A stretch of DNA of 64,000 bases, from assembly GCA_946408355.1 (NCBI GenBank), contig CAMJRX010000005.1, forward strand, positions 11,568-75,567. Reading direction: 5' to 3'. Shown piece after piece: positions 12,305 through 42,046 of this stretch. The position numbers and the translations under genes are program-made. The notes beneath the pieces are model-generated. The model ran no database searches and had not been told where the DNA came from. It worked only from the letters and a program-made list of their open reading frames with translations. The stretch is from an uncultured Selenomonadales bacterium (GTDB taxonomy: Bacteria; Bacillota; Negativicutes; Selenomonadales; Selenomonadaceae). Within the stretch, counting starts at the first letter, position 1. Every line of letters starts with the position of its first letter.

Positions 12305-12373
12305 GGCAACAGTCTTGCAACTAAAATAATTTAATGTTAAAATCGCGAAAAGTTTTTAAGCGGAGGCTGGAAA

Positions 12374-13153: not shown

Positions 13154-13194
13154 ACGCGCCAAACTCGACGCGCATGAGTAAAGGAGCGGGAAAA

Positions 13195-13815
13195 ATGATT
13201 CTTACTGTGGAAGTTTTCGGCGTCATTGACGAGAACGCCTATTTTTTTATCGACGACGCTACTAATCACGGATTTTTAATTGACCCGGGCGCAGAGGCTG
13301 ACAGGCTTTTAAAAATCGCCAACGAGCGCAACTTCACTATTGAAAAAATTTTGCTGACGCACGGGCACTTTGATCATATCGGCGCAGTCAACGAAATTCA
13401 ACGCGCCTTGAAAATTCCCGTGTGCATGAGCAAGGGCGGCAATTACTACGCCAAAGATCCCGCGATAAATTGTTCCGCTTTTGTTGGCGATTCGATTATT
13501 CTCGACGATGTGACTTGCTTGCCCGATTACAGCGAAATTGCTTTGGACGCGAATAAAAATTTTAGCGTCAAGCTTATTCCTGCGCCTGGTCACACGCTCG
13601 ACGGAGCAATTTATTACAGTTCTAAAGAGGGCGTCGCGTTCGTCGGTGATACGATTTTTTGCGGCAGTTATGGACGAGTTGACTTGCCCGGCGGCAGTGG
13701 ACGCGATTTAATGACTACGATTAGAGATGTAGTTTTCGCCCTGCCCGATGAAACAATTTTATACACGGGGCACGGTTTAGAGACTACAGTTGCCGCTGAA
13801 AAAACGTGGTATTAA
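13195..13815 (+). CDS. MBL-fold metallo-hydrolase (glyoxalase II-like)
   Basis: THGHFDHIG motif. ATG 13195 lies 8 nt after AAAGGAG. Confidence 0.8.
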   Translation: MILTVEVFGVIDENAYFFIDDATNHGFLIDPGAEADRLLKIANERNFTIEKILLTHGHFDHIGAVNEIQRALKIPVCMSKGGNYYAKDPAINCSAFVGDSIILDDVTCLPDYSEIALDANKNFSVKLIPAPGHTLDGAIYYSSKEGVAFVGDTIFCGSYGRVDLPGGSGRDLMTTIRDVVFALPDETILYTGHGLETTVAAEKTWY

Positions 13816-14054
13816 ATATCAGCCTCGACGCCGTGATTGTCGAAGACGCCTAAAATTTCTCTGAGCTTAGTTTTACCGGGGTTGTAGTCAATAGTCGTTT
13901 CGCCGTCGTGCGCGTGAATGTGAACGTACAACACGCCCGCCAAACCTAGCAAACTTTTTTCGACAGCCTTCGCATTTTCTTGCGTATAACCTTTAGCGGT
14001 GAATTGCAAACGGGTATTGCCGCCAACTTCGCCGCAACCGCATTCTTTGCACAT
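13812..14054 (-). CDS. Small metal-binding protein: N-terminal CxxCGC motif plus an HMA-like fold
   Basis: MCKECGCGE at the N-terminus, followed by a pattern of about 65 aa that looks beta-alpha-beta-beta-alpha-beta. Confidence 0.5.
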   Translation of the reverse strand: MCKECGCGEVGGNTRLQFTAKGYTQENAKAVEKSLLGLAGVLYVHIHAHDGETTIDYNPGKTKLREILGVFDNHGVEADI

Positions 14055-14243
14055 AATTTAAACACCTCGCTGAAAATTTTTACTGCCGAATTATACAGCG
14101 CGAAAATTTCTTTCACAAGCCCCGCGCAGGGTTCAAGGAGGGCAACGTGACGTTGCATCCAGTTGACGCGATTTAGTTGACAAGATTTTTTAACTAATCA
14201 CCGCGCAGTATGAAATTTTTAGTCTAAAATTTTGGAGGATTGT

Positions 14244-14600
14244 ATGACAAAGCTTTTACTGGTATTTATCGGCGGCGGATTGGGAGCAGTATCACGCTTT
14301 TTAGTTACGACGGCATTATCTGGTAAGCTTGGCAACTTTCCATTGGGCACGCTTACGGCAAATTTTTTCGGTAGTTTGCTAATGGGCTTAGTCGTGGGAA
14401 TTTTGGCGGGGCGATTTGAATCTGTGCGTTTATTCGTCGCGGTAGGCTTTTTGGGCGGTTTTACGACGTTTTCGAGTTTTTCGGCTGAAACGCTTGCTTT
14501 GATTCAAGGTGGGCAAATTTTTTCTGCATTAGTTAATATTGTCGTCAACGTATTCGCAGGGTTGCTTGCGTGCGCTGTCGGCTTAAAAATAAGTGGCTAG
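14244..14600 (+). CDS. crcB: Fluoride ion channel CrcB/FluC
   Basis: GGGLGAVSRF and GFLGGFTTFSSF motifs. ATG 14244 follows GGAGG. Confidence 0.85.
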   Translation: MTKLLLVFIGGGLGAVSRFLVTTALSGKLGNFPLGTLTANFFGSLLMGLVVGILAGRFESVRLFVAVGFLGGFTTFSSFSAETLALIQGGQIFSALVNIVVNVFAGLLACAVGLKISG

Positions 14601-26639: not shown

Positions 26640-29282
26640 TCATTTAAATTTACCAGTAATACCTAGTACCTCAACACTGCGTTTATCTCCGCGCTCTGCT
26701 GCCGTCTGCCACCATTCTAGCGCACGAGAATAACATTTTAAATTCCAAAAAATTCCTCCGAGTTCGCTGACTGAATCATTATCGCCAAGACAACTTGCAT
26801 CTAGACAGCTTTCAATCGCCGCGTGAATATTTTTCAGCGTGCCTAAACCGTTCTGGTACATGTACGCCAAATATTTAATAGATTCGACATGCCCCATTGC
26901 CGCCGCACGAGAAAAACTATTCAAAGCATTTGCGTATTTCTTTTTGTTAAAAGCCGTCTTGCCTAAAGAGAAATCATCATTTGCAGTTGAATGTTTACGC
27001 GGCTTGCCAATTTTAGGAGGCAAAAATTTTTCCGCTGATAAATTATTTTGGGCATCATTATCCAAAGTTATATCGAGCAACTGATTTTTTCTTTCGAGCA
27101 TATCATCTAAAAAATTATCCGTAGAATTTTCCGAACTAAAAACTTTACTGCTTTGTTTAGGGCAAATTAATCGCCAATTATTATAAAAATTTTTCAATGC
27201 AGAGCTTATTTTTTCCATAACAACAAAATCTTGATTCAAGAAGTCAATTTTATTGTAAATATCCTCTGCATGTTGACGAAAAATATTCAAGCAAGATTCG
27301 CGCTGATTCCGGCAAAGTGTCGATACCTGCGTAAAATATTCAATCGTTGAGGCGAAAAACTTTTGTCGCAAATTTTTTTCTAGCGCGTTGATTTTATCTT
27401 TAAAAATTTCCTCTAAATGCTGTCGTAATTCTCTGCGAAATGTTCCTGCCAAATAAAAATTTTCAAGCAACTGTTTGCGATTCGCTTTGAAGAAATGCCA
27501 ATCTCCCTCTACTTCCTGCGTACAAAGGATTCGCGTACAACGTTTAACGAGTTCCGACAATTTATCGCGTGAAAAACTTTCTGATATTCCCACGTCGAAG
27601 GGCAACATGTTAATTTTTATTTCCGGCAAATTTACACCTAAACGGGACGCACTTGAAAATGTAGAGCAAACACAATCGATAAATTCTTTTGCTTGCGTTT
27701 TATGCTCGTCAATAATTTTTTTTGTCAGATTGATTAATTGTTTTGTCTGCTCGTTGTATTCGCTTTGCAACTGATTTTCCACAGTGGCGACGGAATTTTT
27801 AAGCTCCGTAGAAATTTTCCCTTGATACAAAAGGGGCATTTTTTCTGCAGAAAAGTCCTCGCTAGCAATTAATTCATCAAAAATATTGCTAACGACCGAA
27901 TTAATCGCCTGAATAAAATTATTTATCGCGTTGCTTACGTCATATATGAGAGCTTTAGCAACTGCATTTCCGCTAATAGTTTTTTCTTGCATTGCGATTA
28001 ACAAGATTTTTTCGCGAAAAATTTCAGCTTGATGAGCGTCGACAGAAAGTTTTTTCGTTTGAATCAGTCGCATATTTTTTAAAGTATCGTCATCAATAAA
28101 CGCAACGGCGCGTTCAACTTGTCTTAATAATTTTTCTGTTGTCGACGAATTTTTTTTGAGCGATTGACGAAGATAATTTTCAAGATACGGCACGCCAGTT
28201 TTTTGTAGGAGCGATTTGCTTGACGGATTAGGCAACGCCTCAAAAAATTTTTCAAGGAAATTTGTCGTAAAAAATTCCTCGCGACCGGTTAAGCCAAGAG
28301 CCTCCGTGATTTCAGCGACAGTAAGCCATTCATCGCCGCTTGTATAGACCGTCAAAAAAACTTCGGGCGCGTCGAGGAAAAATATTGGCGCGTCGTTAAA
28401 TCCGTTTGCGTCCAGAATTTTTGCAAAGTCAAAAAAGATTTTCGCGGAATTTATCGCCACTTCTTGTTCACGCACGGCAGGACAAATCAACACAAAAATA
28501 ATTTTATTTTTATCCGGCGCATCGGCAACGGTTGCTAAAAAATTTTCCGTCCGTGCAAAGTCATTGTTCAAAGCATTAACAGCGAAGACGCAAGCATTAC
28601 AATTCGGCAAATTTTTAGCGACTTCAGCGTCAGATAAAATTTCCGTATCAAAATTCAGCCGCTCAAAAATTTTCGCTAAATGCTCGTGTTCGCCTGTAAG
28701 GATTAGTTTTATTGGCTTGTTGAAACTTTGCAAATATTTTTCGAGTTTCTCCGTTGCCGATAAAAATTCTTTAACGTAAGAAATATTTTCCTGCAATTTT
28801 AATTCGTCTGTTTTATCCTGTAAATTTTTCACGCCGTCAAGTTCTTTAAGAAGGTTAGTTGCATTGTCCATTAACTTTTGCTCAACAGCGATTGCTGAAA
28901 ATTCTTCCTCTGAACAAATTTCAAGCGGCACTTGCAGAAATGAACATTGCCGTTTAACCGCGTTCGCCACGTCAATAAAACCTTGCGGCACTACTAAAAA
29001 ATTTTTCCCCGTCGCCATAAAGTTTTCGTCATATGAAATAGCGTCTAACGCGGCGGATAAAGTTTCAACCTCAAATTCCCCCGACGCAGAAATTAATTTC
29101 GCCGCGCAAGGAAATTTAATCTCTTGAGCAACGCGGGCAGAAATTTCCGCGTCAAAATCTGGTAACAGATAAATTTTATTCGGATTGGCGTTAATGTATG
29201 CAAGTATTTCAGCTTTGACTTCGCGCAAAAATTCTTCCGGAACGGCGACGCATTTTTTATTGCTCCAAGCCAAAAGATTCAT
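26640..29282 (-). CDS. Operon gene G: large protein with C-terminal Sel1/TPR-like repeats
   Basis: 880 aa. C-terminal AAAMGHVESIKYLAYMYQNGLGTLKN.. and ..WWQTAAERGD are Sel1-type repeats. The ATG overlaps the stop of gene F (ATGA). Confidence 0.75.
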   Translation of the reverse strand: MNLLAWSNKKCVAVPEEFLREVKAEILAYINANPNKIYLLPDFDAEISARVAQEIKFPCAAKLISASGEFEVETLSAALDAISYDENFMATGKNFLVVPQGFIDVANAVKRQCSFLQVPLEICSEEEFSAIAVEQKLMDNATNLLKELDGVKNLQDKTDELKLQENISYVKEFLSATEKLEKYLQSFNKPIKLILTGEHEHLAKIFERLNFDTEILSDAEVAKNLPNCNACVFAVNALNNDFARTENFLATVADAPDKNKIIFVLICPAVREQEVAINSAKIFFDFAKILDANGFNDAPIFFLDAPEVFLTVYTSGDEWLTVAEITEALGLTGREEFFTTNFLEKFFEALPNPSSKSLLQKTGVPYLENYLRQSLKKNSSTTEKLLRQVERAVAFIDDDTLKNMRLIQTKKLSVDAHQAEIFREKILLIAMQEKTISGNAVAKALIYDVSNAINNFIQAINSVVSNIFDELIASEDFSAEKMPLLYQGKISTELKNSVATVENQLQSEYNEQTKQLINLTKKIIDEHKTQAKEFIDCVCSTFSSASRLGVNLPEIKINMLPFDVGISESFSRDKLSELVKRCTRILCTQEVEGDWHFFKANRKQLLENFYLAGTFRRELRQHLEEIFKDKINALEKNLRQKFFASTIEYFTQVSTLCRNQRESCLNIFRQHAEDIYNKIDFLNQDFVVMEKISSALKNFYNNWRLICPKQSSKVFSSENSTDNFLDDMLERKNQLLDITLDNDAQNNLSAEKFLPPKIGKPRKHSTANDDFSLGKTAFNKKKYANALNSFSRAAAMGHVESIKYLAYMYQNGLGTLKNIHAAIESCLDASCLGDNDSVSELGGIFWNLKCYSRALEWWQTAAERGDKRSVEVLGITGKFK

Positions 29283-31942
29283 GCTACTCTCTCCAGCTTA
29301 TCGACGACTTTACGGACGCTCTCGACGATATTTTTCTTAGTTTGATTTTCAAGATTCCTTTGGTCAAGCCCTCTGAACTCGTCCTCTTTTACCTTGCGAA
29401 TATTATCGGTTATCCACTTGTCGAAAAGTTTTGCGCCGTCGGAAGTTTCCTCGTCCTTGCGAATTATGTTTATATTTTTCGTCATAACGGAAACAAACGC
29501 TTGCTCCAGCCCGATTGCGTAGATAATCGCCTCAAGCGTAAATTGCCGCAAGATTTCAATGTCCTCGTTCAATACACGCAACATATCGTCTTCGTTAGAA
29601 ATTTGCATTTGCCGACTTAACTCGTGCATTTTGCGCAATTTATCCACAGTCACCTTGCCCGAAAAACCGGATTTGTTCTTTGAATAAGTGTCGATTGTAT
29701 CGTTCAAGCGGTTAATGCGTTCATCTTTGCTTAAGTTCGACCAGTCGTTTTTATAAAAAGTCCCTTGAAGTTTACCTCTTAAATCGTTGGGAACTTCGTT
29801 AGCTTTAATGCCGGCGCGCAAAAGCATTTTCGCCCATTTACCCATAGGCAACAATTCAACGGCAAAAGATAGCCCCGCGCATATGGCGTCTTTATTGGCT
29901 TTGAAGAAATTTTCCAGACCGCTTTTAATCTCCGTGCTCGCCGAAACATTATCGTGCAAAAGAATTTTCGCAAAAAAATCTGTGTAACGATCTTCGCCGT
30001 CGCTGTGACTGACAACGGGGGAATTTTCATAGTAAGTCGCCAACGAAAGGAATTCCGGAAAAGATTTTTCACCTGTGACTTGCTGAAAACGTTCCGAAGA
30101 ACCGAACGGTCGCCAAATTAAAACTTCCAACAGCCGCGAAGTAAATCTTTCTACCAGCGAATTGAAGCGGCATTTATCAGCGTTCTTTATCCACAGCGAA
30201 TGGAATAATTCCGTAACGCTTTTGGTGAGTTCCTCTTTGTATTGAGAGTTATCCGGCATGCCCATTACTTCGAGGAATTTTGCAATGATTTTGTCGTAAA
30301 TTTCCTGTTCCTTTTTTTCGGTTGCTTCTGCCGTTCTTTGTACGAGGTTGCGCAAAAATTCCCGTTGCAATTCCTCGCGGAATTTTGCATCTATCGCGGT
30401 AAGCGGTAAAGGTCCACTGCCCTCAAGGTTTCCACTGCGTTTAATTTCCGCAAGCAGTTCAGAGTTCTCATCTTGATTGGGATAAAAAGTCTCGATATTA
30501 TCGCGAATCATTGAGCTAAAAGGTTCCTCTAAAAGGATTTGACTATTATACGATTTAGCAATGTCGTAAGCTTCTACTTTAAATTTTCTAAGATTCCGGA
30601 TTGCCTCTAAATAATATTCGCCGCCCGTCTCGATTGGTTGCCACTGCGCGGACTCATACTTCTTTAAAATGCCGTCCAAAAAATTTCTTGCGTCAGCGAT
30701 TGTGTTTTCTGCGCGGCGTTTCAAAACTTCAAAGCGGTCGTTGTTGTAATACTCCGTCATGCTCTCCCAAAGTTCAACGATACCATAAGCCATTCCCCAT
30801 GCGTCCATTTTGTCACGCGACGCCGTCGAACCTTTAAGTAATTCGTCGCTCGATTCAATGTCGTTACTTTCCAGATAAGCCTTCGCCGCCCCAACGAAAA
30901 TGTGATTGTCCTTTGCAATGCGATTTTCCACAGATTCTTTACGCAAAACGGCGGCATTTCTTTTAGCAATTTCAGAATTAGTTGCGCGGTCAATCTGATT
31001 ACCAAAAATAAATGCCTTGTCGCTCAACGGGATATTTTCTTCATCGCGACCGCTCCTCAATATGCCAAGTTGCGAACGATCCAAATTTGGATTTACGCCG
31101 ACATTAGTCACCAAAATTATCGCGTCCGCCTCGCGCAACATTTCCAAAGTCTGCTTTTCGTGCAATTCGGTTGGCGAATTAAAGCCTGGCACGTCGTAGA
31201 GAACGATATCTTTCATTGAGCCGAGATTCGCCGATTCAATTATGACTTTCTCAACGGCGTAAGGGTGCGCCGAACGTATCGCCGAACCGTCAGCATTTTT
31301 CCCAACTATGCCCGTTATAAATGTTTTGAATTCTTTGCTTTCGAGGTCGTCGCCGAAAAATTCTTGAGCCTTTTGACCGAGCAACCCGCGAATTATATTC
31401 CTGTCTTTCAACATAGTTTTAATATCTTCGGCGGTTTTGGTGTTATGCTTTTCGTACAAGTCGGGATTTTTATCCGCCATAGACTCCCACCACCTGCTGA
31501 AGGTAGACAAATCCAGCGTTTCAAAGTCAGCAGTTTGCGGATATTGAAGAACGTTTTTAAGCGTATCGGCGAAATTATTTTTGAATTGCTCCCTGTTGTA
31601 GAAAAAAATTTTACCGCAATCCTCGTTGCCCGCGCAGATTTTTGTAGTCGTGTAAGTGCAACGTTCCGTATACTCCGGCAAAATATTTCTTTTGAGAAGG
31701 GCATTACCGAGCGTACTTTTGCCCGCCTTCTCCAAACCGACGACAGCCACAGTAAATTCTCGCGTGCGCAACTTATTTAAAACTTTTTGATTGCGTTTTC
31801 TCAAGCGTTCCAATTCGATGCGCTCTTCGCCGAAGGGAATAACCATGCCGTTGGGGTCTTTTTGAATTATCTCATCAAAAATCCCGTCGGTTTCGTCCAA
31901 CTTCGTGATAAATTTTTGTTGCTCTTCGCTCAATGTACTCAA
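29279..31942 (-). CDS. Operon gene F: dynamin-like GTPase
   Basis: G1 VVGLEKAGKST, G3 LYDVPG, G4-like FGNQID, followed by long helical regions. TTG start 8 nt after AGGAGG. Confidence 0.8.
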   Translation of the reverse strand: MSTLSEEQQKFITKLDETDGIFDEIIQKDPNGMVIPFGEERIELERLRKRNQKVLNKLRTREFTVAVVGLEKAGKSTLGNALLKRNILPEYTERCTYTTTKICAGNEDCGKIFFYNREQFKNNFADTLKNVLQYPQTADFETLDLSTFSRWWESMADKNPDLYEKHNTKTAEDIKTMLKDRNIIRGLLGQKAQEFFGDDLESKEFKTFITGIVGKNADGSAIRSAHPYAVEKVIIESANLGSMKDIVLYDVPGFNSPTELHEKQTLEMLREADAIILVTNVGVNPNLDRSQLGILRSGRDEENIPLSDKAFIFGNQIDRATNSEIAKRNAAVLRKESVENRIAKDNHIFVGAAKAYLESNDIESSDELLKGSTASRDKMDAWGMAYGIVELWESMTEYYNNDRFEVLKRRAENTIADARNFLDGILKKYESAQWQPIETGGEYYLEAIRNLRKFKVEAYDIAKSYNSQILLEEPFSSMIRDNIETFYPNQDENSELLAEIKRSGNLEGSGPLPLTAIDAKFREELQREFLRNLVQRTAEATEKKEQEIYDKIIAKFLEVMGMPDNSQYKEELTKSVTELFHSLWIKNADKCRFNSLVERFTSRLLEVLIWRPFGSSERFQQVTGEKSFPEFLSLATYYENSPVVSHSDGEDRYTDFFAKILLHDNVSASTEIKSGLENFFKANKDAICAGLSFAVELLPMGKWAKMLLRAGIKANEVPNDLRGKLQGTFYKNDWSNLSKDERINRLNDTIDTYSKNKSGFSGKVTVDKLRKMHELSRQMQISNEDDMLRVLNEDIEILRQFTLEAIIYAIGLEQAFVSVMTKNINIIRKDEETSDGAKLFDKWITDNIRKVKEDEFRGLDQRNLENQTKKNIVESVRKVVDKLERVA

Positions 31943-31956
31943 GCCGATTACCTCCT

Positions 31957-32562
31957 TTAATTTGTATTATGTTTTTGACTTAATTCACGCCACGCCTCAG
32001 CAATATCTACGGAAGTTGCCGAATTTTTTTTACGGGCGGGCGACGGCGCAAATTTTTCTGGTTTAGGCGATTTAGAATTTAGATTATAATTTATCGGTAG
32101 AATTTTTTGCTTTTCTATTGAAGGATACGGCTTGTCGAGGGTGCCGATTAAAAATCTTTGCCCGCCTTCCGTCTTAACGCGGAGAATAGTGCTGTCGAGT
32201 GGTAATTTCAATTTCGACTGGAGCTGGCGGTCTGTAAACGAAAAAAATTTTTCTATATCCTCGTTCGTCCAAGTCGTCGGTGATACGGTTTGAACGTTGG
32301 CTGATTTCCCTGCGATGAAAAATTTTTCGACGTTAAAACCTTCGCGCCAAATAACACAAATATCTGTTGAATCTTCGGAGGTATGTCCGGTTTCTTGCTC
32401 CCATTGCCGCCAATAGTCTGCGGCGTTTGTGCCGTTTAAGTTATAAGTTTCGCCGCCGTGCAAGCGCAAAACAATAAAATTTTCGCGCTCAAAAGAATAA
32501 GTCTTAACAATTTGTTCGTCGAGACATTCGATTAAGTATTTGTAAATCGTCAAAGCCTTCAC
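31957..32562 (-). CDS. Operon gene E: hypothetical protein (201 aa)
   Basis: The GTG start overlaps the stop of gene D (GTGA). I recognise no domain. Confidence 0.6.
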   Translation of the reverse strand: MKALTIYKYLIECLDEQIVKTYSFERENFIVLRLHGGETYNLNGTNAADYWRQWEQETGHTSEDSTDICVIWREGFNVEKFFIAGKSANVQTVSPTTWTNEDIEKFFSFTDRQLQSKLKLPLDSTILRVKTEGGQRFLIGTLDKPYPSIEKQKILPINYNLNSKSPKPEKFAPSPARKKNSATSVDIAEAWRELSQKHNTN

Positions 32563-32963
32563 CTACCTTTTGTTTTTTTCTGAAGAAATTTTTGGTGCAA
32601 TTCGGCTTTCTTTTTTGCGAACGAGGATTTTCTTTCATAAAGATTTGTTTCAAGTACCATTTGTTCAGCTAAGATTCGCCGTGATTTTTCTTTTTGTTCC
32701 GCGAGGATTTTTTCGCCCTCTTTTGTCAAGCCGTCGGGGAAAGGAATTACGTCTAACTTTGTATCCGTCGGCGTCTTCAATGCTAAAAAGTCACGTTGAA
32801 TATTTTGCCGTTCCTGTTCAACTTCTTGACTGTCACGTTTTATTTTAGTTTCGAGGACGCTTATTTTTTTATCAAATTTTTTGACCGGCTCTTGGGATTC
32901 TCTCTCGAGAAATTGCATTGAGATAACTTTTTGCTGAATTTCTTTAAACTTGCCGCCGTTCAT
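32559..32963 (-). CDS. Operon gene D: highly charged coiled-coil protein (134 aa)
   Basis: The ATG overlaps the stop of gene C (ATGA). Lys/Glu/Gln-rich, heptad-like sequence. Confidence 0.6.
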   Translation of the reverse strand: MNGGKFKEIQQKVISMQFLERESQEPVKKFDKKISVLETKIKRDSQEVEQERQNIQRDFLALKTPTDTKLDVIPFPDGLTKEGEKILAEQKEKSRRILAEQMVLETNLYERKSSFAKKKAELHQKFLQKKTKGR

Positions 32964-33922
32964 GACGTAGCCTCAACTTTTGACGTATCTTTAAAGTCAA
33001 CGTCGTCCAAAATTTTTTCCGCGTCTTCGGGAAGTTCGCCATTCTGTCGTGCCTGCTGAAATTCCGCGCCGTATTCTTTTTGCAAATCATCTTTATAAAC
33101 GGACGCCAAAACTTTATCGTCGCTGTTAGAAACTTTGCGCATTTCGTTTAGCCGCGTAAGTAAATCCAGCTCGCTTTTTTCCGGAAAATAAAACTTCAAC
33201 GAATCCAAAAGCGCGGCGGTTATACGTTCCAATTCACCGGCGGGCAATGTTCCTTTTAAATATTCGCTGATGTTCAAATTTTTATAACCCAGCTCGTCGA
33301 ACGCCCGAATGAACGCTTGCACTTCCTTAACTTCCATTGCAGTGCGACCAATTTCAATCAGCGTCGTTTTCGGAATGCGCAAGCCAAATTTTTCTTCAAG
33401 CGCACTAACTTCCGCCTGCATACCTAAAACAGAATACATGCCAATATTTTTTTGCAGTTGAAGTGTATCGATTTCCTCTGCAGGAATTTGTTCCTTCAAA
33501 TAGGCGTAATACTCTTTAAACGACTTAAAATCATCGCGTTTTTTCCAGTCTTCGTGCTTGTCGGCTTCCTCTAAGCGATAACCGATTTCCTCTGGCTTTT
33601 CGTTTTTCTCGACGACTTCATTTTCCTCAGCGATTTTAGAAATTACTTTAACCACCAACTTAACGAGCAAATCAACGATTATCGGACCCAATATCGGTCC
33701 CAGAGGTCCTGTCATAATTCCGCTTAAACCTTTAAGAAGTCCAAACGCTTTACCCGCAATCGAACCTAAAAAACCAGAAATCGCTTTGCTCGCCAAATTT
33801 CCAATCGTGCTTATCGCTCCGGTTACTGCCGACGCAATGCCGCTTGCAATCCTGCCAATAGCACTTCCAACGCTACTAATAGCACTTCCGATGGCACTTC
33901 CAATAGAACTAAAAAATCCCAT
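32960..33922 (-). CDS. Operon gene C: protein with an N-terminal Gly/Ser/Ala/Ile-rich glycine-zipper membrane region and an acidic C-terminal domain
   Basis: The first roughly 100 aa read GFFSSIGSAIGSAISSVGSAIGRIASGIASAVTGAISTIGNLASKAISGFLGSIAGKAFGLLKGLSGIMTGPLGPILGPIIV. The ATG lies 1 nt after the stop of gene B, and its SD AAAGGAGGG sits inside the end of gene B. Confidence 0.7.
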   Translation of the reverse strand: MGFFSSIGSAIGSAISSVGSAIGRIASGIASAVTGAISTIGNLASKAISGFLGSIAGKAFGLLKGLSGIMTGPLGPILGPIIVDLLVKLVVKVISKIAEENEVVEKNEKPEEIGYRLEEADKHEDWKKRDDFKSFKEYYAYLKEQIPAEEIDTLQLQKNIGMYSVLGMQAEVSALEEKFGLRIPKTTLIEIGRTAMEVKEVQAFIRAFDELGYKNLNISEYLKGTLPAGELERITAALLDSLKFYFPEKSELDLLTRLNEMRKVSNSDDKVLASVYKDDLQKEYGAEFQQARQNGELPEDAEKILDDVDFKDTSKVEATS

Positions 33923-33923
33923 G

Positions 33924-36900
33924 CTAATTCCCTCCTTTTAAACGCAGAACACCCATAATTTCGCGCTGAATTTTTAAGAGTACCGAATCAAAATTATCAT
34001 CATCGGCTGATAAAATTTCTTCGACGACGCCGCAAAACTTTTCAAAAATTTTCTGATCATACGGCTCGTACAGATTGCAGAAAAGCCACGTTTGCCACAC
34101 ATCGCGCCCAACAGTTTTTTCAACGTGATTAACTTCGCGTTGGAAAGTTTTTAGCGCGTTTTCTGTTGTGTCATTGTCGAACAGGCTACGATATTTTTTC
34201 TTAAGCGAATAGCCGCCGCGCATAATCCAAAGATATTGGCGGATAATTTCTTTAGAAATTTCTGCAGGGAAATGTTCAATGCCGCGCAGAACGCCGCTTG
34301 CAATAACTTTCGGCTCGGTGTAATAGTTTTCGGCAATGTCGCGAATTTCTTCCGGCTCAATTTCCCGTTGCTCCGTCGTAGATACTTCCTGTTTAATTTT
34401 GACTTGCATAGCTTTAACTTGTCCTTGCGAAAAAATAATCGCCCTGCCCGTCGGAAGTTTAGACAAAAAAGTTTTCTGTTCGTCGGAAAGGGCAATCGTA
34501 TCGCCTATTGCGTCTTTATCGTCGCGGGCAAATAATTTGTGCACAATTTTTGTATTCGTATTCTTTAAAACTTCGGGCGTCATCTTGTCGGGAATTTGAT
34601 CGACAATAATCAACGACTCGCCATATTTGCGAACCTCCGCTAACATGTCGGAAAAAACTTCGACGCCCTGTTTTTTATTCATGCTATCGCCTGGAACGTA
34701 TCGGCTTAACAATCTGTGCGCCTCTTCTATCAACGTAATGTGTTGGAAGGCGGGATTTTTTCTGTGACGATATTGCACCGCTTGCAAAAGATTTGTAAGT
34801 ATAAATCCCATGAGCAAAGATTTTTCCGAGCCGTTTTTAATCTCTTCGAGTTCGATAACAACTTTGCGCTCAACTAAATCAAAAAAATTTATCGAACGCG
34901 CCGTATCAAACATCATGCCTTTCGCGCCGACTAAAAGGCTTTCTATTCGCGCCTTCAATGAACCCATATATTCATCTTGCAGACGTTCGCCGAAGCCCTC
35001 TTCCTTTGTAACTTTTTTTACTGCCTCCCAAAAATCAGACATTGTCGGGAAAGGATAAACTCCCGCGTCGAAAGGATTTTGCGGTTCGTCGTTGCCGTTA
35101 ATTGTTGGTCGCCATTCGTTTGTGCGAATATCCCAGCCCTTTTCCTCATAAGCGCGATAAACTCCCGTCTCCAAAATTTGCGGGATCGCCGCCTCCATGT
35201 CAAAGGACGCCTCTAACGTCGCCTTAATCATGTCAGCGCGTCCGGTTATCGCCTCGCCAGGAAATAATTCAAATGGATTCAAGAAAAACGGCGCGATATT
35301 TTGTTTGCCCGGCGTAAAGAAAATTAATTCGGGGCAACGTTCTTTCAATATGCGATATTCAGTCTTCGCCGGCTCAATTACCAAAAACGGCAACCCGCTG
35401 TTAATCAAAATGTTTTGGCAAGTCGTAGTTTTGCCGCTCCCAGTCACGCCCGTAATAAAAGTATGTTTGTTGAGGTCGCGCCTGTCCAAAGACACGGGCA
35501 AATTGCGTTCGGTGCCGTCTTGTACTAAATTTCCGAGCGGCAATTTATATTCGTCAGCGACGGGCTTAAAGTTCAAACCAAATTCAACTTCCTCGCGCAA
35601 GGCAAGACCAGGAATTTCTTTTTTGGGCAACGCCGCGATAACGCTCAATTCCTCTACCGAAAACCAATTCCCGCACCAGCCAACGCGATTTCCTGTCCAA
35701 CTCGAAAGTATTGCCGAATATTTTTTTTCGTTAGGCTCAAGGAACGAGGGAATTTGCATATTTTGCAGAGCGTGCAAACAACCAGCCTCCGACTTTGAAA
35801 ACTCGTGGAAACTCAACGGTCGCCGATTGCCTTTCGTGCCACTGTAAAGTGAAATTGCTGTATTGGCGAGGCGGTGGAGCATTGCCGGTTGCGCCGCGAA
35901 AAGATACGCACAACATAAAAAAAGCCCCTTGCCTCTGCCACAATCGAGGCGCGGAAATAAAATTTCGTCGATATATTTAATCCACTGCGCGGCGGTTTTA
36001 GTGTCAACTTCCATTTGCTCAACTTGCGCCGTGTTGCTTGACGTGGATTCTGTGGTCGCGTTCGTTTTATTTTCTATTGTCGTCGACGAAATATTTTCCG
36101 ACGAACTTTGACTTGCGCTTTCGCTGTTCTGCGTACTTTTGCTCGTGTTGTCAGTCGAGGAAACTTGATAGCCGAAAACATACGACGTTTGATTTTGTGC
36201 GGAATAATTTGCGCCTGAAGAAATTCCGCCGCTTTGCTCCTTTGATTTGTTTTCGTCCTCCGACTTCTTGACGACGTTATTATTATCTTTTTCCGTAACA
36301 AGATTTTTATTGTTGGCGTTACGTTCACTGCTATTAGAACTGCTACTTATGCTGTGCTGTCTACCGGAAGTTTGCCCCGCCGTTGCCTGTTGCTGATTGG
36401 AAATATTTTTTTGCTCGCTTTGACTTGTCGTTTCGATTTTGTTGCTTGAAGAATTTTTACTTTCCTGCGTCGATTCGGTTATTTGCGTGCCGTTGCTGGT
36501 GTTTACACTTGAATTATTAGCCGTTCCCGTTGACTTCGTGCGCTGAAAAGAATGACGAGCAATCGGCGACAGCGCGTCGGCAATCTCAATCAGCACATCT
36601 TCCAATTTGTTAACTTCCGCGCCAACCAACGGACGAGCTATAACCATAAATCCGAATTCATCGCCCGCCATAACGTTAATCAATCTGTCCACGCCTTGAA
36701 AATTTTCGTTGTCTTTCTCGGTGCCTGGTACGCCCGTCAAAATCCCCGCGCAGGAAATATTTTTCAAGCGTTTTATAACTTCGCGTTTATCTGCGTTAGT
36801 CAGCTCGCGAATTTGACAGCCGCGAAAATTTCCTTGAATACTCGGTTTAAGCAAGTCGCCGCCGATTGTAGGCGCAGAAAGATTTTCCGCTTTTTCGTGT

Positions 36901-37205
36901 GCAAAATCTTTCGCTATCCCAAAATAAAATTTAACGTCCTGCCCACTGCCCAATATCAAATAAATAAAACTCATGCCCTCAAGGTCGCGAAAAGTGCTCA
37001 AAACATTTTCCATAGCCTCGCGACGCGGTGCCTTCTCCTCAAATGTCAATTCCTCAATCTGAAAGAAACAACATTCGCGCAAAATAATTTCTCGCTCCGT
37101 GCCTAGCCATTCGCGCTCACGAATAAAAAAATTTCCCTTCGCAACGTCAGAAAGCCCGCTAACTACCGCTTGACCATTTTTTATTGCCTCGTCTATCTCC
37201 CGCAT
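33924..37205 (-). CDS. Operon gene B: HerA/FtsK-superfamily P-loop ATPase with a long low-complexity insert
   Basis: Walker A HTFITGVTGSGKTT (about 35425-35455). Walker B-like HITLIEEAHRLL. Ser/Asn/Thr/Gln-rich segment at about 36020-36540. SD AAGGGGA before the ATG. Confidence 0.8.
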   Translation of the reverse strand: MREIDEAIKNGQAVVSGLSDVAKGNFFIREREWLGTEREIILRECCFFQIEELTFEEKAPRREAMENVLSTFRDLEGMSFIYLILGSGQDVKFYFGIAKDFAHEKAENLSAPTIGGDLLKPSIQGNFRGCQIRELTNADKREVIKRLKNISCAGILTGVPGTEKDNENFQGVDRLINVMAGDEFGFMVIARPLVGAEVNKLEDVLIEIADALSPIARHSFQRTKSTGTANNSSVNTSNGTQITESTQESKNSSSNKIETTSQSEQKNISNQQQATAGQTSGRQHSISSSSNSSERNANNKNLVTEKDNNNVVKKSEDENKSKEQSGGISSGANYSAQNQTSYVFGYQVSSTDNTSKSTQNSESASQSSSENISSTTIENKTNATTESTSSNTAQVEQMEVDTKTAAQWIKYIDEILFPRLDCGRGKGLFLCCAYLFAAQPAMLHRLANTAISLYSGTKGNRRPLSFHEFSKSEAGCLHALQNMQIPSFLEPNEKKYSAILSSWTGNRVGWCGNWFSVEELSVIAALPKKEIPGLALREEVEFGLNFKPVADEYKLPLGNLVQDGTERNLPVSLDRRDLNKHTFITGVTGSGKTTTCQNILINSGLPFLVIEPAKTEYRILKERCPELIFFTPGKQNIAPFFLNPFELFPGEAITGRADMIKATLEASFDMEAAIPQILETGVYRAYEEKGWDIRTNEWRPTINGNDEPQNPFDAGVYPFPTMSDFWEAVKKVTKEEGFGERLQDEYMGSLKARIESLLVGAKGMMFDTARSINFFDLVERKVVIELEEIKNGSEKSLLMGFILTNLLQAVQYRHRKNPAFQHITLIEEAHRLLSRYVPGDSMNKKQGVEVFSDMLAEVRKYGESLIIVDQIPDKMTPEVLKNTNTKIVHKLFARDDKDAIGDTIALSDEQKTFLSKLPTGRAIIFSQGQVKAMQVKIKQEVSTTEQREIEPEEIRDIAENYYTEPKVIASGVLRGIEHFPAEISKEIIRQYLWIMRGGYSLKKKYRSLFDNDTTENALKTFQREVNHVEKTVGRDVWQTWLFCNLYEPYDQKIFEKFCGVVEEILSADDDNFDSVLLKIQREIMGVLRLKGGN

Positions 37206-37216
37206 TGTTTTTCCCC

Positions 37217-37380
37217 TTTAAATTCGATTTCATCGGGCGAAATTAAATAAAAACACTCGCGCAAAATAATTTCTCGTTCGCGAACAAAAAATTTTATCTT
37301 TAAATTCGACTTCATAAGGCAAATTAAAGAAATATCACTCGCGCAAAATAATTTCTCGCTCGCGAACAAAAAATTTTATC
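37217..37380. repeat. Two tandem 82-bp repeat units in the gene A - gene B intergenic region
   Basis: Units 37217-37298 and 37299-37380 are roughly 88-90% identical by eye. They contain copies of sequence from both flanking genes; see findings. Confidence 0.85.
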
Positions 37381-37408
37381 TTTATGTCTACTGCATTGTT
37401 TTTAAACT

Positions 37409-40405
37409 TTAATTAGGAAACTTTTTTGTATAAATTTTCCCGTCAAAGTCTTCGCTCTCAAAATCTTCCGCTCTTCCAACCGCATATTCGATTTCATCGG
37501 GCGAAATTTTCCTTATATATACAGAAATATCCCTGTCGCGGCTGACTTCAGCCTTGTCGAGGCTACAACGAACTACGTTTACTTCATTTCTTTTTAAATT
37601 TCCGCTAATCGCTACTGCCTCTTCCGTAAAATAAATCTCAAACTTCCGCGCATTGGCATAAGTAAACCTCGTCCACTGATTATACGGTATGTCAAGCTTA
37701 ATTTTGACTTGAAAACAGTCGTTAGCGTCAATTTGCCCCAAATAAAACTTAAACGGAGCTTCTTCTTCCGCGCCACCGATAATTTCAACATCACTGCCGC
37801 CCTCGCGACTGCGCAAAAGCCCAAATGCTACTCCAGTTTTGCCCGTGCGAAGTCTTTCGTAGTTTTGATTCGTTTCTTGCTCGGTTTCGTCGGCGTCATG
37901 TACTTCTGCGGCTCTTTTTTCTGCCTCGTCGGGATCAAATCCAAGAGGCATGTGCAATACAAAAATATTTGAGACGTTTTTATCCTCTCCGGTGTTGCGC
38001 GAAATGATTTCCTCAAGTTTTTGTTCGTTCTCACGGATTTTTTCCTCAAAAAGATTCCGCACGATTGTAGATTTACAAGAATTGCCCGCTAAAAGAATGT
38101 GAATCGGTAAAACTTCAGGCTTTTTAAACGCGCCAAGCAAAGCCTCAAAGAAATTATCGACGCCACGACGAATTCTTTCTTTTAAACACTCTTCAAGCCG
38201 TTGTCTGTTCAATTTTAACTCGACAGGAATAATTTTGTCTTCCGTTTGAGAATAAAGCTTTAATTTTTGCGGCGTATCAAAAAGTTCGTTGCTCTCTTCG
38301 ATATTTTCTTCCCAAAACGGTCTCAAAAGCTCCGCAATACGTTTTCTATTGACATAAGCCTCTTTTGTCTTGAGAATTATCGTTTGTGCACCGTCGACAG
38401 CAATACATTCATAAGGCAACGCAAAGGGAATTTGTTTTTCGCGCATAGTCGACAGATTATTTTTATAAACTTCGTAAGCGATAAGGTTTAAAAGGTTTTC
38501 GCCGCCTAAATATGGGTCGCCGCGTCCAGTATTTGTATATTGTTCTATCACAAACTTGGAAAATCCGTCTACAGGAACACTTTCGACGCCAAAATCAAAA
38601 TCAGTGGTGCCTCCGCCGAAATCGAACACCGCATAAGCAGTTTTTTCGCCAGCTTTAGGTTGTAATTTCAATTCGCCAAGCGCACAACTCGCATAAGCAG
38701 CCGGTTCACTCGCTCCAGCGTAAATAATAAAGTCTTCCATTAACTCTTCGTCGTTTAAAATCGAGGGAGGTAGCGATTTTTTAATTCCGCGCTCAAAACT
38801 TTGCAGAATTTTTTCGCGAACAGCCTTTTCATACGTCACCGGAAACGAAAACATATACTCAAGGCAAATTCCATTGTGCATATTGTTAATATAAAGCCCT
38901 AAATAATAAGCGTAAAGCTCAATCGGGTCAAAATCATCATCTTCAAGTTGCAAATACGGATTAAGCTCAACTAAATTCTTTTTTCTGTCCTGCAAATACA
39001 TGCGCAAATCTTTATCGTTAGCCCATTGTTTTAATTCGCCGAATACCGAATAAAAAACCGAACTATCTATGCTGGTATCCTTTTCCGCGTCATTTAAAAC
39101 TGCGGCGGCGGTGTGCGAAAACGTTGCATCGTCCCATTGCGTGAAAGGTCGACCGTCACGAGATAAATATGCCGCCTTAAATGATTCATAATCGCGCAAT
39201 TCTATGACTGTCGGGTTCTCATAATCTTTTTTTTCGGGTGCTTTGGCATAATTGCCCTCGCCAATTCGCAAAAGTTTTTCGTCAGTGCCAACTTGACGCA
39301 CTACAACCGTTGCTTTCGTGCCAAAATCAATCGCAACTATGCCGTCGGTAACGTCCATTTGCGGAGGACGTCCAAAAAATGGCTCGTTTTCCGGTAATTC
39401 TATAATTTCTGCGTCTTGTGGCGGTTCCTCGAAAAGTTCCCAATGTCCGATTTTCGGATCTGTCAAAATTTTAACGTCGTAAGGATGAATATTCGCCCGA
39501 ATGTAATCGCATTGACAAAGCTCCTCGCGAACTTGATTAATCGGATTTTGTACGTCATCTTTTTTGGCTTTAACGTTCGGCAAATCATTTTTACTTTTGC
39601 CAAAACCTTTTGCGACAAGATTTTCAAAATCAATTATGCCGCGTTCAGCCTCGCGATTAAATAAATTAAAATCAAGCGTCAACTTCCGCGTAATCATTCG
39701 CACGTAGCGTTGAATATGCGGGAAAATGTTCATCAAAAAAATATAAGCCTTCTTAGCTTGCGGCGATAAACCTTCAGGAACCAATTCATTCGTCAGCCAA
39801 GCATTTACTGTTTTGCCGTATTGCGCGTTTGTAGAATTTACTCCGGTCAATCTGAAAATCGGCACCATTGTAATTTTGTCGGAGTCCGAATAAATATTTA
39901 TTTGCCCGCTGGAGGTTACACAATAAGATTTACTGCCTTTCCAACCCGAAACTAAAATAATTTTCTTGAGGGCCGTAGGAAAATATTTAAAATTGCCGTC
40001 CTCGTCCAAATATGGATTTTCCATACCGACGATAAAACTTTTCAAGCATTCTTCAGGCGTCATGGGCGTAAAAGTAAAGCCTTCAAACGACCAACCCGAA
40101 TAATTGTAAAGCGGACGACCAACCGTCGCAAAACTCGGAAGTTCAACCGCCTCGAAACGCGGAAAAATACCACCTGTCGCTCTGTCGAACCAAACTTTTT
40201 TATTTTCCATCATCACGTAAGGCGCATCTTTGAATTTTTCAAGCTCGTCGATTGCAAACGTAACGTAAGCTTCAAATTCGTCCAGAGAAATGCTTTTTTT
40301 CGCAGAAGTTTTTGGCGTGCTGTCAATATTTTTTAAATTGCCCCGCAAAGCTACTTCATAACAAGGGCACGTGCGGTCTTTTGCTCTAGTGTCTATTATT
40401 CCCAT
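37409..40405 (-). CDS. Operon gene A: giant Hsp70/actin-fold (DnaK-like NBD) ATPase with novel N- and C-terminal regions
   Basis: DGIVAIDFGTKATVV (phosphate-1, about 39318-39347). AVFDFGGGTTDFDF (phosphate-2, about 38603-38632). HILLAGNSCKSTIV (adenosine motif). ATG 40405 follows AAGGAGAG; the track start at 40453 lacks an SD. Confidence 0.8.
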   Translation of the reverse strand: MGIIDTRAKDRTCPCYEVALRGNLKNIDSTPKTSAKKSISLDEFEAYVTFAIDELEKFKDAPYVMMENKKVWFDRATGGIFPRFEAVELPSFATVGRPLYNYSGWSFEGFTFTPMTPEECLKSFIVGMENPYLDEDGNFKYFPTALKKIILVSGWKGSKSYCVTSSGQINIYSDSDKITMVPIFRLTGVNSTNAQYGKTVNAWLTNELVPEGLSPQAKKAYIFLMNIFPHIQRYVRMITRKLTLDFNLFNREAERGIIDFENLVAKGFGKSKNDLPNVKAKKDDVQNPINQVREELCQCDYIRANIHPYDVKILTDPKIGHWELFEEPPQDAEIIELPENEPFFGRPPQMDVTDGIVAIDFGTKATVVVRQVGTDEKLLRIGEGNYAKAPEKKDYENPTVIELRDYESFKAAYLSRDGRPFTQWDDATFSHTAAAVLNDAEKDTSIDSSVFYSVFGELKQWANDKDLRMYLQDRKKNLVELNPYLQLEDDDFDPIELYAYYLGLYINNMHNGICLEYMFSFPVTYEKAVREKILQSFERGIKKSLPPSILNDEELMEDFIIYAGASEPAAYASCALGELKLQPKAGEKTAYAVFDFGGGTTDFDFGVESVPVDGFSKFVIEQYTNTGRGDPYLGGENLLNLIAYEVYKNNLSTMREKQIPFALPYECIAVDGAQTIILKTKEAYVNRKRIAELLRPFWEENIEESNELFDTPQKLKLYSQTEDKIIPVELKLNRQRLEECLKERIRRGVDNFFEALLGAFKKPEVLPIHILLAGNSCKSTIVRNLFEEKIRENEQKLEEIISRNTGEDKNVSNIFVLHMPLGFDPDEAEKRAAEVHDADETEQETNQNYERLRTGKTGVAFGLLRSREGGSDVEIIGGAEEEAPFKFYLGQIDANDCFQVKIKLDIPYNQWTRFTYANARKFEIYFTEEAVAISGNLKRNEVNVVRCSLDKAEVSRDRDISVYIRKISPDEIEYAVGRAEDFESEDFDGKIYTKKFPN

Positions 40406-40442: not shown

Positions 40443-40471
40443 AGTATACGCAAATACTATCCATAAGTCAA
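40443..40471 (-). promoter_or_regulatory. Promoter of the seven-gene operon
   Basis: On the minus strand: TTGACT (40471-40466), a 17-nt spacer, TATACT (40448-40443). Confidence 0.5.
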
Positions 40472-40546: not shown

Positions 40547-42046
40547 ATGAGGTGGAAAAAATTTTTTCAACGCGGCTTAATTATCATTTCAGCCGTATTT
40601 TTTTTGCTCGGTGCTAGTTTTGTCGGCGCAGCTGTCCAAATTTTCGACGGAAGCGGTCAATATATCATGAGCGACGACGGTAATCACGAATTCGGCAAAA
40701 AAAGAGCGCAACAACGCGCCGAACGCGACGCACAAAAGAAAGCTGGCATTTATTTAACAACTTTTTCGCGTTCAGTCAACGCAATTCTAACCGATGACGA
40801 AATTTCTGCCGTCACGAATAATATTATTAAAGTTTCTGACGTAAAAATTGTTCCGGTGCCATTTGAGACGCAGGGCGAAGCCGGTCTCATGTACAAAGCC
40901 ACTTTAAAGGCGACAATCGACACTGACGGGATTTTTTCTTGGATAAATCGCAACGACAACGAAAAAATTACTATCATTAAACAAAATAATAATTTGCAAG
41001 CAGAAATTCAAAAAAATGACGCCCTCGACGAGAATTTAAAGGAAAAATACAAGGGCGCAACCACTCAAGCGGAGAAAAATACCCTTCGCAAGCAAATGGA
41101 AGAATCAGACCGCGATTTTTTAGCTAATCAGAAACTCGAAGAGGGAAATAAACTTTATTACGCCAAAAATTATGACGGCGCGGCAAAATTTTATGGTGAA
41201 GCTCTCGGATTAAAGCCGAATTGGGATTGGGCGTACAATAATCGCGGTGCCGCTTATAACGAAATCGGAAAATATCAGCTGGCAATTCAAGATTTAAATA
41301 AAGCAATCGAATTAAATCCGAATAATTCGGAGGTTTATAATAATCTCGGAAATTCTTATCTCTATTTGCAACAATATCAGCAGGCAATTTCTTACTACAA
41401 CAAGGCAATTCAGCTAAATTCTAACGATTCAAAGCTTTATAATAATCGTGGCGAGGCTTATCGTTACTTAAATCAATTCGATTCGGCAATTTCTGATTAC
41501 AATAATGCGCTTAAAATTAATCCGAATTTTGCAGAGGCGTATAATAATCGCGGAGTTGCTTACATGGACGGTTTTAAACAGTATGATAGGGCAATTTCCG
41601 ATTATAACAAGGCGATTCAACTAAATTCTAATTACGCCGAAGCTTATTACAATCGTGGAAATGCTTATATTAACCAAAATCAATTAGATTCGGCGATTTC
41701 TGATTACAATAATGCGCTTAAACTCAATCCGAATTTTTATCAAGCCTATTATAATCTCGGAATTATTTACTACAACCAGAAAAAATACGAATTAGCGATT
41801 CAAAATTACTCTAAAGCCATTGAATTTAATCCGAATTTTTTCGCGGCGTATCTAAATCGCGGACTTAATTACGCTTTGACTGGAAATTTGCAATATGCGA
41901 TTGCCGACGCGAACAAAGCCATTCAACTTAATCCGAATTCTGGCGAAAGTTATTATTTGCGTGGAGTCTTTTATCAGGAACTCGGCGACATGCAAAAAGC
42001 TCAAGACGATTTCGCAAAAGCTAAACAGCTTGGCTACAACGGTTGA
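40547..42046 (+). CDS. Secreted or lipoprotein-like TPR-repeat protein
   Basis: N-terminal signal-like hydrophobic segment. At least 8 consecutive TPR units (..AYNNRG.AY......AI.DYNKAI.LNPN..). Confidence 0.8.
   Translation: MRWKKFFQRGLIIISAVFFLLGASFVGAAVQIFDGSGQYIMSDDGNHEFGKKRAQQRAERDAQKKAGIYLTTFSRSVNAILTDDEISAVTNNIIKVSDVKIVPVPFETQGEAGLMYKATLKATIDTDGIFSWINRNDNEKITIIKQNNNLQAEIQKNDALDENLKEKYKGATTQAEKNTLRKQMEESDRDFLANQKLEEGNKLYYAKNYDGAAKFYGEALGLKPNWDWAYNNRGAAYNEIGKYQLAIQDLNKAIELNPNNSEVYNNLGNSYLYLQQYQQAISYYNKAIQLNSNDSKLYNNRGEAYRYLNQFDSAISDYNNALKINPNFAEAYNNRGVAYMDGFKQYDRAISDYNKAIQLNSNYAEAYYNRGNAYINQNQLDSAISDYNNALKLNPNFYQAYYNLGIIYYNQKKYELAIQNYSKAIEFNPNFFAAYLNRGLNYALTGNLQYAIADANKAIQLNPNSGESYYLRGVFYQELGDMQKAQDDFAKAKQLGYNG

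Follow-up and report, generated by a model that had tools for sequence, protein, structure and literature searches.

A family of very divergent Hsp70-type ATPases with GrpE-like partners and a HerA-type module, and its possible role in conflict or defence

The closest described Hsp70 systems

Three types of prokaryotic Hsp70 are recognised, namely, DnaK, HscA, and HscC (YbeW) (Mayer 2021, PMC8215388). Here, we describe gene A, which encodes a 998-aa protein with an Hsp70-type nucleotide-binding domain (NBD) in an uncultured Selenomonadales bacterium (GCA_946408355.1, contig CAMJRX010000005.1). The gene lies within a stretch of 64,000 nt (contig positions 11,568-75,567, forward strand), called the window below, and positions are those of the window unless another locus is named. 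Gene A opens an operon of order A, B, C, D, E, F, G, which holds no GrpE-like gene. Every named member of the gene A family is annotated as "hypothetical protein," and a full-text literature search yielded no description of the family or of an Hsp70-GrpE-HerA module.

The likeness to DnaK-GrpE comprises the NBD fold and every catalytic residue, and probably also a beta-rich domain that comes after a short linker at the position of the beta part of the substrate-binding domain (SBD-beta). The system further includes a dedicated partner, which aligns over its C-terminal 140 residues with the helical bundle and beta domain of GrpE. The family nevertheless shares only ~13% identity with DnaK, and gene A has no Pfam HSP70 match, lid, tail, J-domain partner, or conserved equivalent of DnaK R167. 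Unlike DnaK, it carries an extra 345-aa N-terminal module, a conserved segment just ahead of the NBD, and large insertions within the NBD. At the level of the system, the family differs from DnaK-GrpE in its tandem paralogues, its linkage to a HerA-type ATPase, and a GrpE-like partner with long, variable coiled coils that scores under the Pfam GrpE cut-off. HscA and HscC are specialised Hsp70s with an altered SBD and lid and with their own co-chaperones, and they illustrate dedicated-client systems (PMC8215388). They are ~550-620 aa long and Pfam HSP70-positive, keep the lid, and use J-domain proteins but not GrpE-like factors, none of which fits gene A.

Two predicted conflict systems also contain Hsp70-like proteins. 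GAP1-N2-type DO-GTPase systems with an HSP70-GrpE theme combine Hsp70, GrpE, sometimes an Hsp70 paralogue without an SBD, and paired GTPases (Kaur 2020, PMC7159879). These systems are defined by DO-GTPases and GAP1 and include FNIII, DnaJ, or TPR proteins, whereas the GTPases of the gene A operon are of the Dynamin_N type and limited to its lineage, and the gene A family has a HerA-like ATPase and a glycine-zipper protein as its constant partners. Neither GAP1 nor DnaJ was recognised in the gene A operon, the absence of DO-GTPases and GAP1 being judged from domain matches and gene sizes only. The second precedent is CnuD of type III CoCoNuT systems, an Hsp70-like NBD/SBD protein without classical co-chaperones that is predicted to be defensive (Bell et al. 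2024, PMC11090510). CnuD superoperons may carry FtsK/HerA-family ATPases, glycine-zipper proteins, and small helical proteins as an "EccE3-HerA" extension (PMC11090510). The nucleotide motifs of CnuD are degenerate and Walker-A-like and no GrpE-like partner has been described for it, whereas the motifs of the gene A family are invariant; no McrB, McrC/DUF2357, vWA, HEPN, or cold-shock component was matched in the gene A operon. Finally, the paired dynamins of Eleos (LeoA/LeoBC) and DynA of B. subtilis resemble neighbours F and G, with weak LeoBC matches, and not gene A itself. We know of no Hsp70, GrpE, or HerA component in the Eleos or DynA systems.

A divergent Hsp70 core between two further domains

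Gene A is a single open frame on the minus strand, the plus-strand frame of the same interval being riddled with stops. The first-pass annotation had noticed three Hsp70-like motifs in this reading frame, and these were found on that strand beginning at residues 357 (VAIDFGTKATVV), 594 (FDFGGGTTDFDF), and 770 (ILLAGNSCKS). The Pfam (E ≤ 0.01), NCBIfam, and PADLOC libraries gave no match to the protein, and a phmmer search of the PDB returned DnaK alone and weakly (E 0.08-0.4). The DnaK of the same genome scores 727 bits to Pfam HSP70, and together with an HscC-length paralogue it spans a range of 280-727 bits. When the family was aligned (alignment A1, 39 sequences) and compared by hhalign with 25 DnaKs of related genomes, the two profiles matched with a probability of 95% (E 3e-8), and the NBD part alone reached 95.5% (E 1.5e-8). 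An AlphaFold2 (AF2) model of the protein (pLDDT 77, pTM 0.62) was then searched against the PDB with Foldseek, and the top 50 matches were all Hsp70s (DnaK, Hsc70, BiP, Ssb, and mortalin; E 1e-16 to 4e-12), with no ParM, MreB, or FtsA chain among them. The proposed homology of the motifs to Hsp70 was therefore upheld, and the core of gene A is a true, very divergent Hsp70-type NBD.

The alignment places the active site of DnaK residue by residue. D360 is paired with DnaK D8, E567 with E171, and D595, T600, and D602 with D194, T199, and D201, while the GD..LGGE stretch (629-636) is aligned to the Hsp70 GDTHLGGDDFD motif. Among 145 representatives, each from a different 50%-identity cluster, D360, G362, T363, K459, E567, D595, G597, G598, T600, D602, G634, G635, and E636 are invariant in all 145. 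Such invariance implies strong selection to keep the site catalytic. K459 would be the counterpart of DnaK K70 as judged by its position, the alignment not being confident there. From these sequence features we infer that gene A is a catalytically competent, extremely divergent member of the Hsp70 superfamily and a predicted ATPase.

Behind the NBD, residues 868-998 were modelled as nine strands at pLDDT 80-93 (assigned with DSSP), and F885, G890, and W911 are nearly invariant among the 145 representatives. Foldseek alignments of the gene A model covered 660-700 columns against chains that include SBD-beta (E ~1e-16) and 446-524 columns against NBD-only chains (E ~4e-12). Inclusion of SBD-beta in the target thus lengthens the alignment by ~150-230 columns and improves E by 3-4 orders, and the beta domain contributes to the score where SBD-beta lies. 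Profile comparison of residues 850-998 with DnaK or with SBD-beta alone, in local and global mode and with 39 or 142 sequences, gave probabilities of ≤0.2% in hhalign. The protein lacks both an alpha-helical lid and an EEVD tail: its model ends in beta strands and its sequence in ...KKFPN. The modelled layout is thus probably, if not provably, that of a lidless Hsp70. The lack of an EEVD tail noted at first pass is borne out, and the lack of a canonical SBD is correct for the lid. Rather than replacing the SBD, as had been suggested, the beta-rich C-terminus would occupy the place of SBD-beta, with no detectable sequence similarity to it. The flanks of about 340 and about 200 residues first given for the core also need adjusting: the N-terminal flank is ~350 residues long, and of the ~220 residues after the adenosine motif, ~90 belong to the NBD and ~130 (868-998) form the separate domain.

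In an exhaustive search, residues ~290-985 proved to be the part common to the whole family. The N-terminal module, residues 1-345, was modelled with 45 homologous N-termini (alignment A4) and gave a confident AF2 fold (pLDDT 86) consisting of an alpha/beta domain, a low-confidence loop, and the helical pre-NBD segment. Within that segment, R303, Y309, G320, and W322 are invariant across A4, and H321, L324, E326, and R346-P-P are invariant within A1. A Foldseek search of residues 1-345 against the PDB returned nothing significant (best E 0.27, with scattered C-type lectins at TM ~0.3); a search of BFVD gave no match at E ≤ 1e-3, the best being uncharacterised phage proteins, DUF6273, DUF1566, and herpesvirus C-type lectins; and no Pfam family was matched in the 45 members. 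The structural check proposed for this region at first pass thus gave a confident fold without a solved relative, and the description of the region as unrecognised stands for Pfam and for solved structures, whereas the CPC singled out there is not conserved. The module is accordingly without recognised relatives, and a C-type-lectin-like core can be suggested from the model only tentatively. A sensor or effector role for it, also raised then, is possible.

CPC, at residue 13, was considered as a zinc site and rejected, as it offers only two cysteines and is not conserved in the family. In other genomes, the N-domain (residues ~30-275) also stands by itself at the N-terminal end of proteins of 519-676 aa (519 aa, L154 4920-6479; 676 aa, L155 4622-6652; 546 aa, L156 276-1916), whose C-terminal halves are unrecognised. 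In L154, this protein adjoins a 1514-aa superfamily-1 helicase fused to an MTES_1575 restriction-endonuclease-like domain.

These flanks bear on an alternative raised at first pass, an ordinary Hsp70 of the HscC/YegD type or a DnaK paralogue with known chaperone domains on either side. Nothing apart from the common NBD fold speaks for it. HscC/YegD-type proteins are ~450-560 aa long, Pfam-positive, and without a large N-terminal module, whereas gene A has 998 aa (against ~450-620 aa for an Hsp70 of this ordinary kind), a 345-aa module that matches nothing, no lid, and no Pfam HSP70 match at E ≤ 0.01. We consider this reading refuted.

The likely start of gene A is the ATG at 40405-40403, which is preceded by an AGGAG ribosome-binding site (40418-40414, 8 nt upstream) and, further upstream, by a site resembling a sigma-70 promoter (Table 1). 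A longer ORF from a TTG, reaching 40453, finds no support, because orthologues of 997-998 aa align from residue 1 of gene A. Divergently transcribed from gene A is a 499-aa protein made almost entirely of TPR repeats (40547-42046, plus strand), whose position is kept in the nearest relative (L011, 94% identity) and not elsewhere. No terminator-like site was found between genes A and B, and the 203-nt spacer between them (37206-37408, minus strand) contains two tandem ~82-nt copies that read ...aaagataaaattttttgttcgcga[g/a]cgagaaattattttgcgcgagtg....

Table 1. Features of gene A, its operon, and the related locus on contig C1
Feature	Position	Strand	Description
Promoter-like site	40443..40471	minus	TTGACT-17-TATACT, 10/12 consensus match only, upstream of gene A
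Gene A	37409..40405	minus	998-aa divergent Hsp70-family predicted ATPase, probably lidless; stop codon 37409-37411
N-terminal module	39371..40405, residues 1-345	minus	alpha/beta domain ~40-275 (39581-40288), then pre-NBD segment
Pre-NBD segment	residues 288-352	minus	conserved; GHWEL and RPPQxDV motifs
Hsp70-type NBD	37805..39349, residues ~353-867	minus	hhalign alignment to DnaK, invariant residues
NBD phosphate and adenosine motifs			phosphate-1 D360-G-T-K; phosphate-2 D595-x-GGG-T600-x-D602; adenosine LLAGNS 771-776
NBD further motifs			E567-P = NEPTAA motif; GD..LGGE 629-636; K459, putative catalytic Lys, in invariant ELKQW
NBD end			acidic low-confidence insert ~826-850; final helix with invariant TGKTGVAFGLL 854-864
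C-terminal beta-sandwich	37412..37804, residues 868-998	minus	probably at SBD-beta position; DV-x-II linker-like segment 872-876 (DVEII)
Gene B	33924..37205	minus	1093-aa HerA/FtsK-superfamily ATPase; P-loop half ~550-945, large N-terminal region
Gene C	32960..33922	minus	320 aa; N-terminal glycine-zipper hydrophobic region, acidic helical remainder
Gene D	32559-32963	minus	134 aa, coiled-coil-like
Gene E	31957-32562	minus	201 aa
Gene F	29279-31942	minus	887-aa dynamin-like GTPase; Pfam Dynamin_N E 1.5e-14, PADLOC LeoBC E 3.7e-11
Gene G	26640-29282	minus	880-aa degenerate dynamin-like paralogue with Sel1/TPR repeats; PADLOC LeoBC E 1.2e-5
Contig C1 locus	L009 8239-18441		order: 365-aa protein, DUF6734 (278 aa), GrpE-like (234), Hsp70-like (1129), GrpE-like (436), Hsp70-like (997), argG-argH

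A GrpE-like partner and a HerA-type module

The family search suggested at first pass recovered 895 clusters at 50% identity (E ≤ 1e-3), and 543 of them reached E ≤ 1e-30. At 90% identity, the scored candidates fell into at least 2730 clusters. The accompanying list of genomic partners consisted of GrpE-like, HerA-like, and glycine-zipper proteins. Neighbourhoods were counted in 77 species-genome loci picked via two conserved peptide patterns, which form a sample and not a census, and the ORFs of the fetched loci were labelled by BLAST and by HMMs built in this analysis. Hsp70-like paralogues stand in tandem at these loci, 1-3 at a time. Proteins of ~1080 aa upstream in L001 and L003 were considered as dynamins and rejected, being such tandem paralogues.

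The usual partner of the family is a 230-470-aa coiled-coil protein encoded directly upstream, present in 41 of the 64 loci with enough upstream flank. Its C-terminal 150 aa follow the pattern G-D-x-F-D-x-D-x-H ... Q-G-x-I-x-x-V-x-L-x-G-Y-x-N ... K-I-I-x-K-S-I-V-x-V and match a canonical GrpE alignment in hhalign with a probability of 95.0% (E 3.6e-8, 139 columns). Pfam GrpE matches the partner below its threshold in 8 of 32 members. When the PDB was searched with a profile of the whole partner, the result was swamped by coiled-coil matches to myosin and tropomyosin, and a profile of the C-terminal 150 aa returned nothing significant there; the homology to GrpE is thus one detected by profile-profile comparison only and not by PDB profile searches. 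Loci without a GrpE-like neighbour belong mostly to one clade, a form of 885-910 aa that is missing the first ~190-200 residues. The first-pass annotation had seen neither a J-domain protein nor a GrpE partner in the operon. No J-domain turned up in the operon proteins here either; the lack of GrpE is likewise correct for the operon, but not for the family, given the partner above and its two copies on contig C1 of the same genome.

Pfam GrpE gave second matches in related genomes, which were considered as partners and rejected, since they belong to a different pair, unrelated to the gene A family by BLAST. In that pair (L118 5495-8031, L119 4437-7073, and L121-L123), a 360-390-aa protein has a C-terminal GrpE domain scoring 35-48 bits, above the Pfam cut-off, and the Hsp70 is 487-490 aa long and Pfam-positive, too short for a full SBD and lid. 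Hsp70 homologues are unusually numerous in the genus, a single genome giving as many as 19 Pfam HSP70 matches. Two further Hsp70 loci of the source genome (C2:51453-52052 and C3:23951-25015) hold a 977-aa ORF that matches the HMM over 107-272 only (79 bits) and, on contig C3, the 547-aa, Pfam-positive HscC-length paralogue.

The exchange factor also bears on the idea that gene A is a scaffold or RNA-binding module that binds nucleotide yet essentially does not hydrolyse it, the role suggested for CnuD. Such a role was predicted for Hsp70-like NBD/SBD units without co-chaperones (PMC11090510), and it would agree with the failure to find a J-domain and with an R167 equivalent that is not conserved. 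The motifs of CnuD are degenerate, however, whereas the catalytic residues of gene A are invariant in 145 diverse members; a conserved nucleotide-exchange factor makes sense only with turnover; and the operon contains no McrBC, HEPN, or cold-shock domains. We therefore regard a scaffold of this kind as highly improbable.

In 18 of 56 loci, the Hsp70-like gene is followed downstream by genes for a HerA-like ATPase (~1000-1160 aa) and a glycine-zipper protein; all 18 loci that have the former and enough flank also have the latter. In the gene A operon these are genes B and C. Gene B matches PADLOC mad8 and HerA, NCBIfam CedD and HerA, and Pfam DUF87, and it matches HerA chains of the PDB at E 5e-9. 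The sequences of genes D and E are conserved among close relatives only, with ORFs of similar size at the same position in distant loci. Among the fetched loci, the dynamin pair F-G occurs in L011-L013 only, the three closest, and is a lineage-specific add-on. The orthologue of gene F in L012 is split into five ORF pieces (12154-14550), by decay or by an assembly error of this metagenome-assembled genome (MAG).

The GrpE-like gene missing from the operon is found elsewhere in the same genome. Contig C1 carries two paralogues of gene A, with 49% identity over residues 292-982 and 40% over 164-726, and each is preceded by a GrpE-like gene (234 or 436 aa; Table 1); the 436-aa coiled-coil protein has ~14-residue repeats. 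In a sister genome (L012, 70% orthologue), the genes are contiguous: a GrpE-like gene and then a paralogue stand ahead of A-E, a fragmented F, and G on a single contig. Another MAG has a C1-type locus (L056) that ends at the contig edge inside an A-type gene, and a second contig (L013) that starts inside A and continues with B-G. The contiguous L012 locus and the contig edges of L056 and L013 thus point to an ancestral state of one supercluster, with two successive pairs of a GrpE-like gene and a paralogue ahead of A, the HerA-like gene, C, D, E, and the dynamin pair. This supercluster is split in the source genome and its nearest relative (L011/L062), with gene A keeping the HerA and dynamin half. 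In a tree of 88 family members, the three paralogues of the source genome fall in three deep lineages. Where tandem paralogues precede HerA (L036, L061, and L012), the GrpE-proximal and HerA-proximal copies belong to different clades, gene A being of the HerA-proximal kind, and this placement hints that the two kinds may work as a set.

The whole module is also present, with a different gene order, on a mobilizable plasmid of Acinetobacter piscicola (L157, NZ_CP048660.1, 33722-46926). It reads HerA-like, small proteins including one C-like, GrpE-like, and two Hsp70-likes, all annotated as hypothetical or "ATP-binding protein." Next come a HEPN-domain protein, a fragment of a dynamin-family protein, and a tyrosine recombinase (integrase), and HipA toxins are encoded nearby.

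Gene A could also be read as an actin-like cytomotive or segregation ATPase, similar to ParM, MreB, or FtsA, that moves DNA together with an FtsK/HerA-like pump for the upkeep or transfer of a mobile element. It shares its fold superfamily with actin-like ATPases, gene B matches CedD and TrwB/FtsK-type models, and the plasmid is mobilizable. Against this, the top structural matches of gene A are all Hsp70s and include no ParM, MreB, or FtsA; the Hsp70-specific GD..LGGE, EP, and DxGGGT motifs are invariant; the dedicated GrpE-like partner is specific to Hsp70 biology; and a beta domain follows the NBD, as in Hsp70. We find a cytomotive role very unlikely.

Conflict system or cellular chaperone

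Considered as a whole, the best explanation is a divergent lidless Hsp70 with a GrpE-like partner, a HerA module, and a role in conflict or defence, to which we give somewhat better than an even chance. Gene A is probably the ATP-driven client-binding or switch subunit of a mobile Hsp70-GrpE-HerA module, as far as function can be judged from homology and gene neighbourhood. Within that identity, we favour a conflict or defence role, though at about evenly balanced chances. It is the most likely role because of the patchy, mobile, and paralogue-rich distribution of the family and the company of HEPN, integrase, and toxin-antitoxin genes on the plasmid, and it is also favoured by the swappable accessories, the plasmid context, and the Hsp70-like precedents in predicted conflict systems (PMC7159879, PMC11090510).

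In such a module, ATP binding and hydrolysis by the NBD would drive opening and closing of the lidless beta domain around a specific client or partner segment, and the GrpE-like factor would reset the nucleotide cycle of gene A. Hydrolysis would be triggered by something other than a classical J-domain, and the N-terminal module could supply targeting or sensing. Gene A might thereby load, hold, or release parts of a membrane-associated HerA/glycine-zipper machine and, in the source lineage, the dynamins too.

Several observations weigh against one or another part of this reading. The beta domain was placed at the SBD-beta position by Foldseek alignment lengths only, and sequence profiles show nothing. 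The column equivalent to DnaK R167, the residue in contact with the HPD loop of the J-domain, varies among A, Q, E, and G, and no DnaJ family was found among the Pfam and NCBIfam matches of the proteins of the operon or the contig C1 locus, a cryptic J-like fold in genes C-E not being excluded. As the supercluster is split, the exchange factor of gene A would have to act in trans, and such action across contigs is an assumption of ours. Known defence models (PADLOC) did not match gene A. No match to the family was obtained in a phage search, and it occurs in only 2 of 72,556 plasmid records. Mostly housekeeping genes flank the operon in the window, and the family cluster adjoins rpsO-pnp, leuS, or argG in several other genomes. 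In one genus, 23 of 23 genomes carry the shorter form, with no GrpE-like gene beside it, and this resembles a vertically inherited cellular function.

These last points are those expected of a specialised cellular chaperone outside any conflict, comparable to HscA-HscB or HscC-DjlC, in which a single dedicated client, perhaps the glycine-zipper membrane protein or else the HerA ring, would be folded, held, or inserted by the Hsp70-like paralogues with their GrpE-like factors. Housekeeping flanks in the window and in several other genomes, fixation in one genus, absence from the phages searched, and rarity on plasmids all favour it, and the intact catalytic site with a GrpE-like exchange factor is what a working cycle would need. 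The family is patchy, however, occurring in 55 of 201 genomes and 10 of 40 genera of its own bacterial family, with up to 5 matches per genome. Recurrent lineage-specific duplications, swappable accessories (the HerA module, the dynamins, and HEPN), and an N-terminal domain shuffled into other proteins, one of them adjoining a helicase-nuclease, also speak against it. We consider a purely cellular chaperone unlikely, if a serious contender.

The conflict reading could be carried further, to a fourth prokaryotic Hsp70 class that acts as an immune or membrane-surveillance device. Lectin-like modules would sense an invader or envelope ligand, the ATP/GrpE clamp would license a HerA ring and a glycine-zipper effector, and the dynamins would remodel or reseal the membrane. 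We hold this fuller picture to be doubtful and offer it tentatively.

What can be described is a large family, seen by no annotation model, whose Hsp70 active site is perfectly preserved and which has kept a GrpE-like exchange factor of its own. The family appears to have lost the lid and the J-domain docking residue, to have gained a front domain, and to have become wired to a HerA-type motor and membrane proteins. At a minimum, the gene A family deserves a model in annotation databases. It seems to represent a fourth kind of bacterial Hsp70 system that has not been described before and may serve in defence. If it does serve as a defence or membrane machine, the Hsp70 cycle would be in use as a switch outside protein folding, and the family would offer a tractable bacterial model of J-independent Hsp70 regulation.

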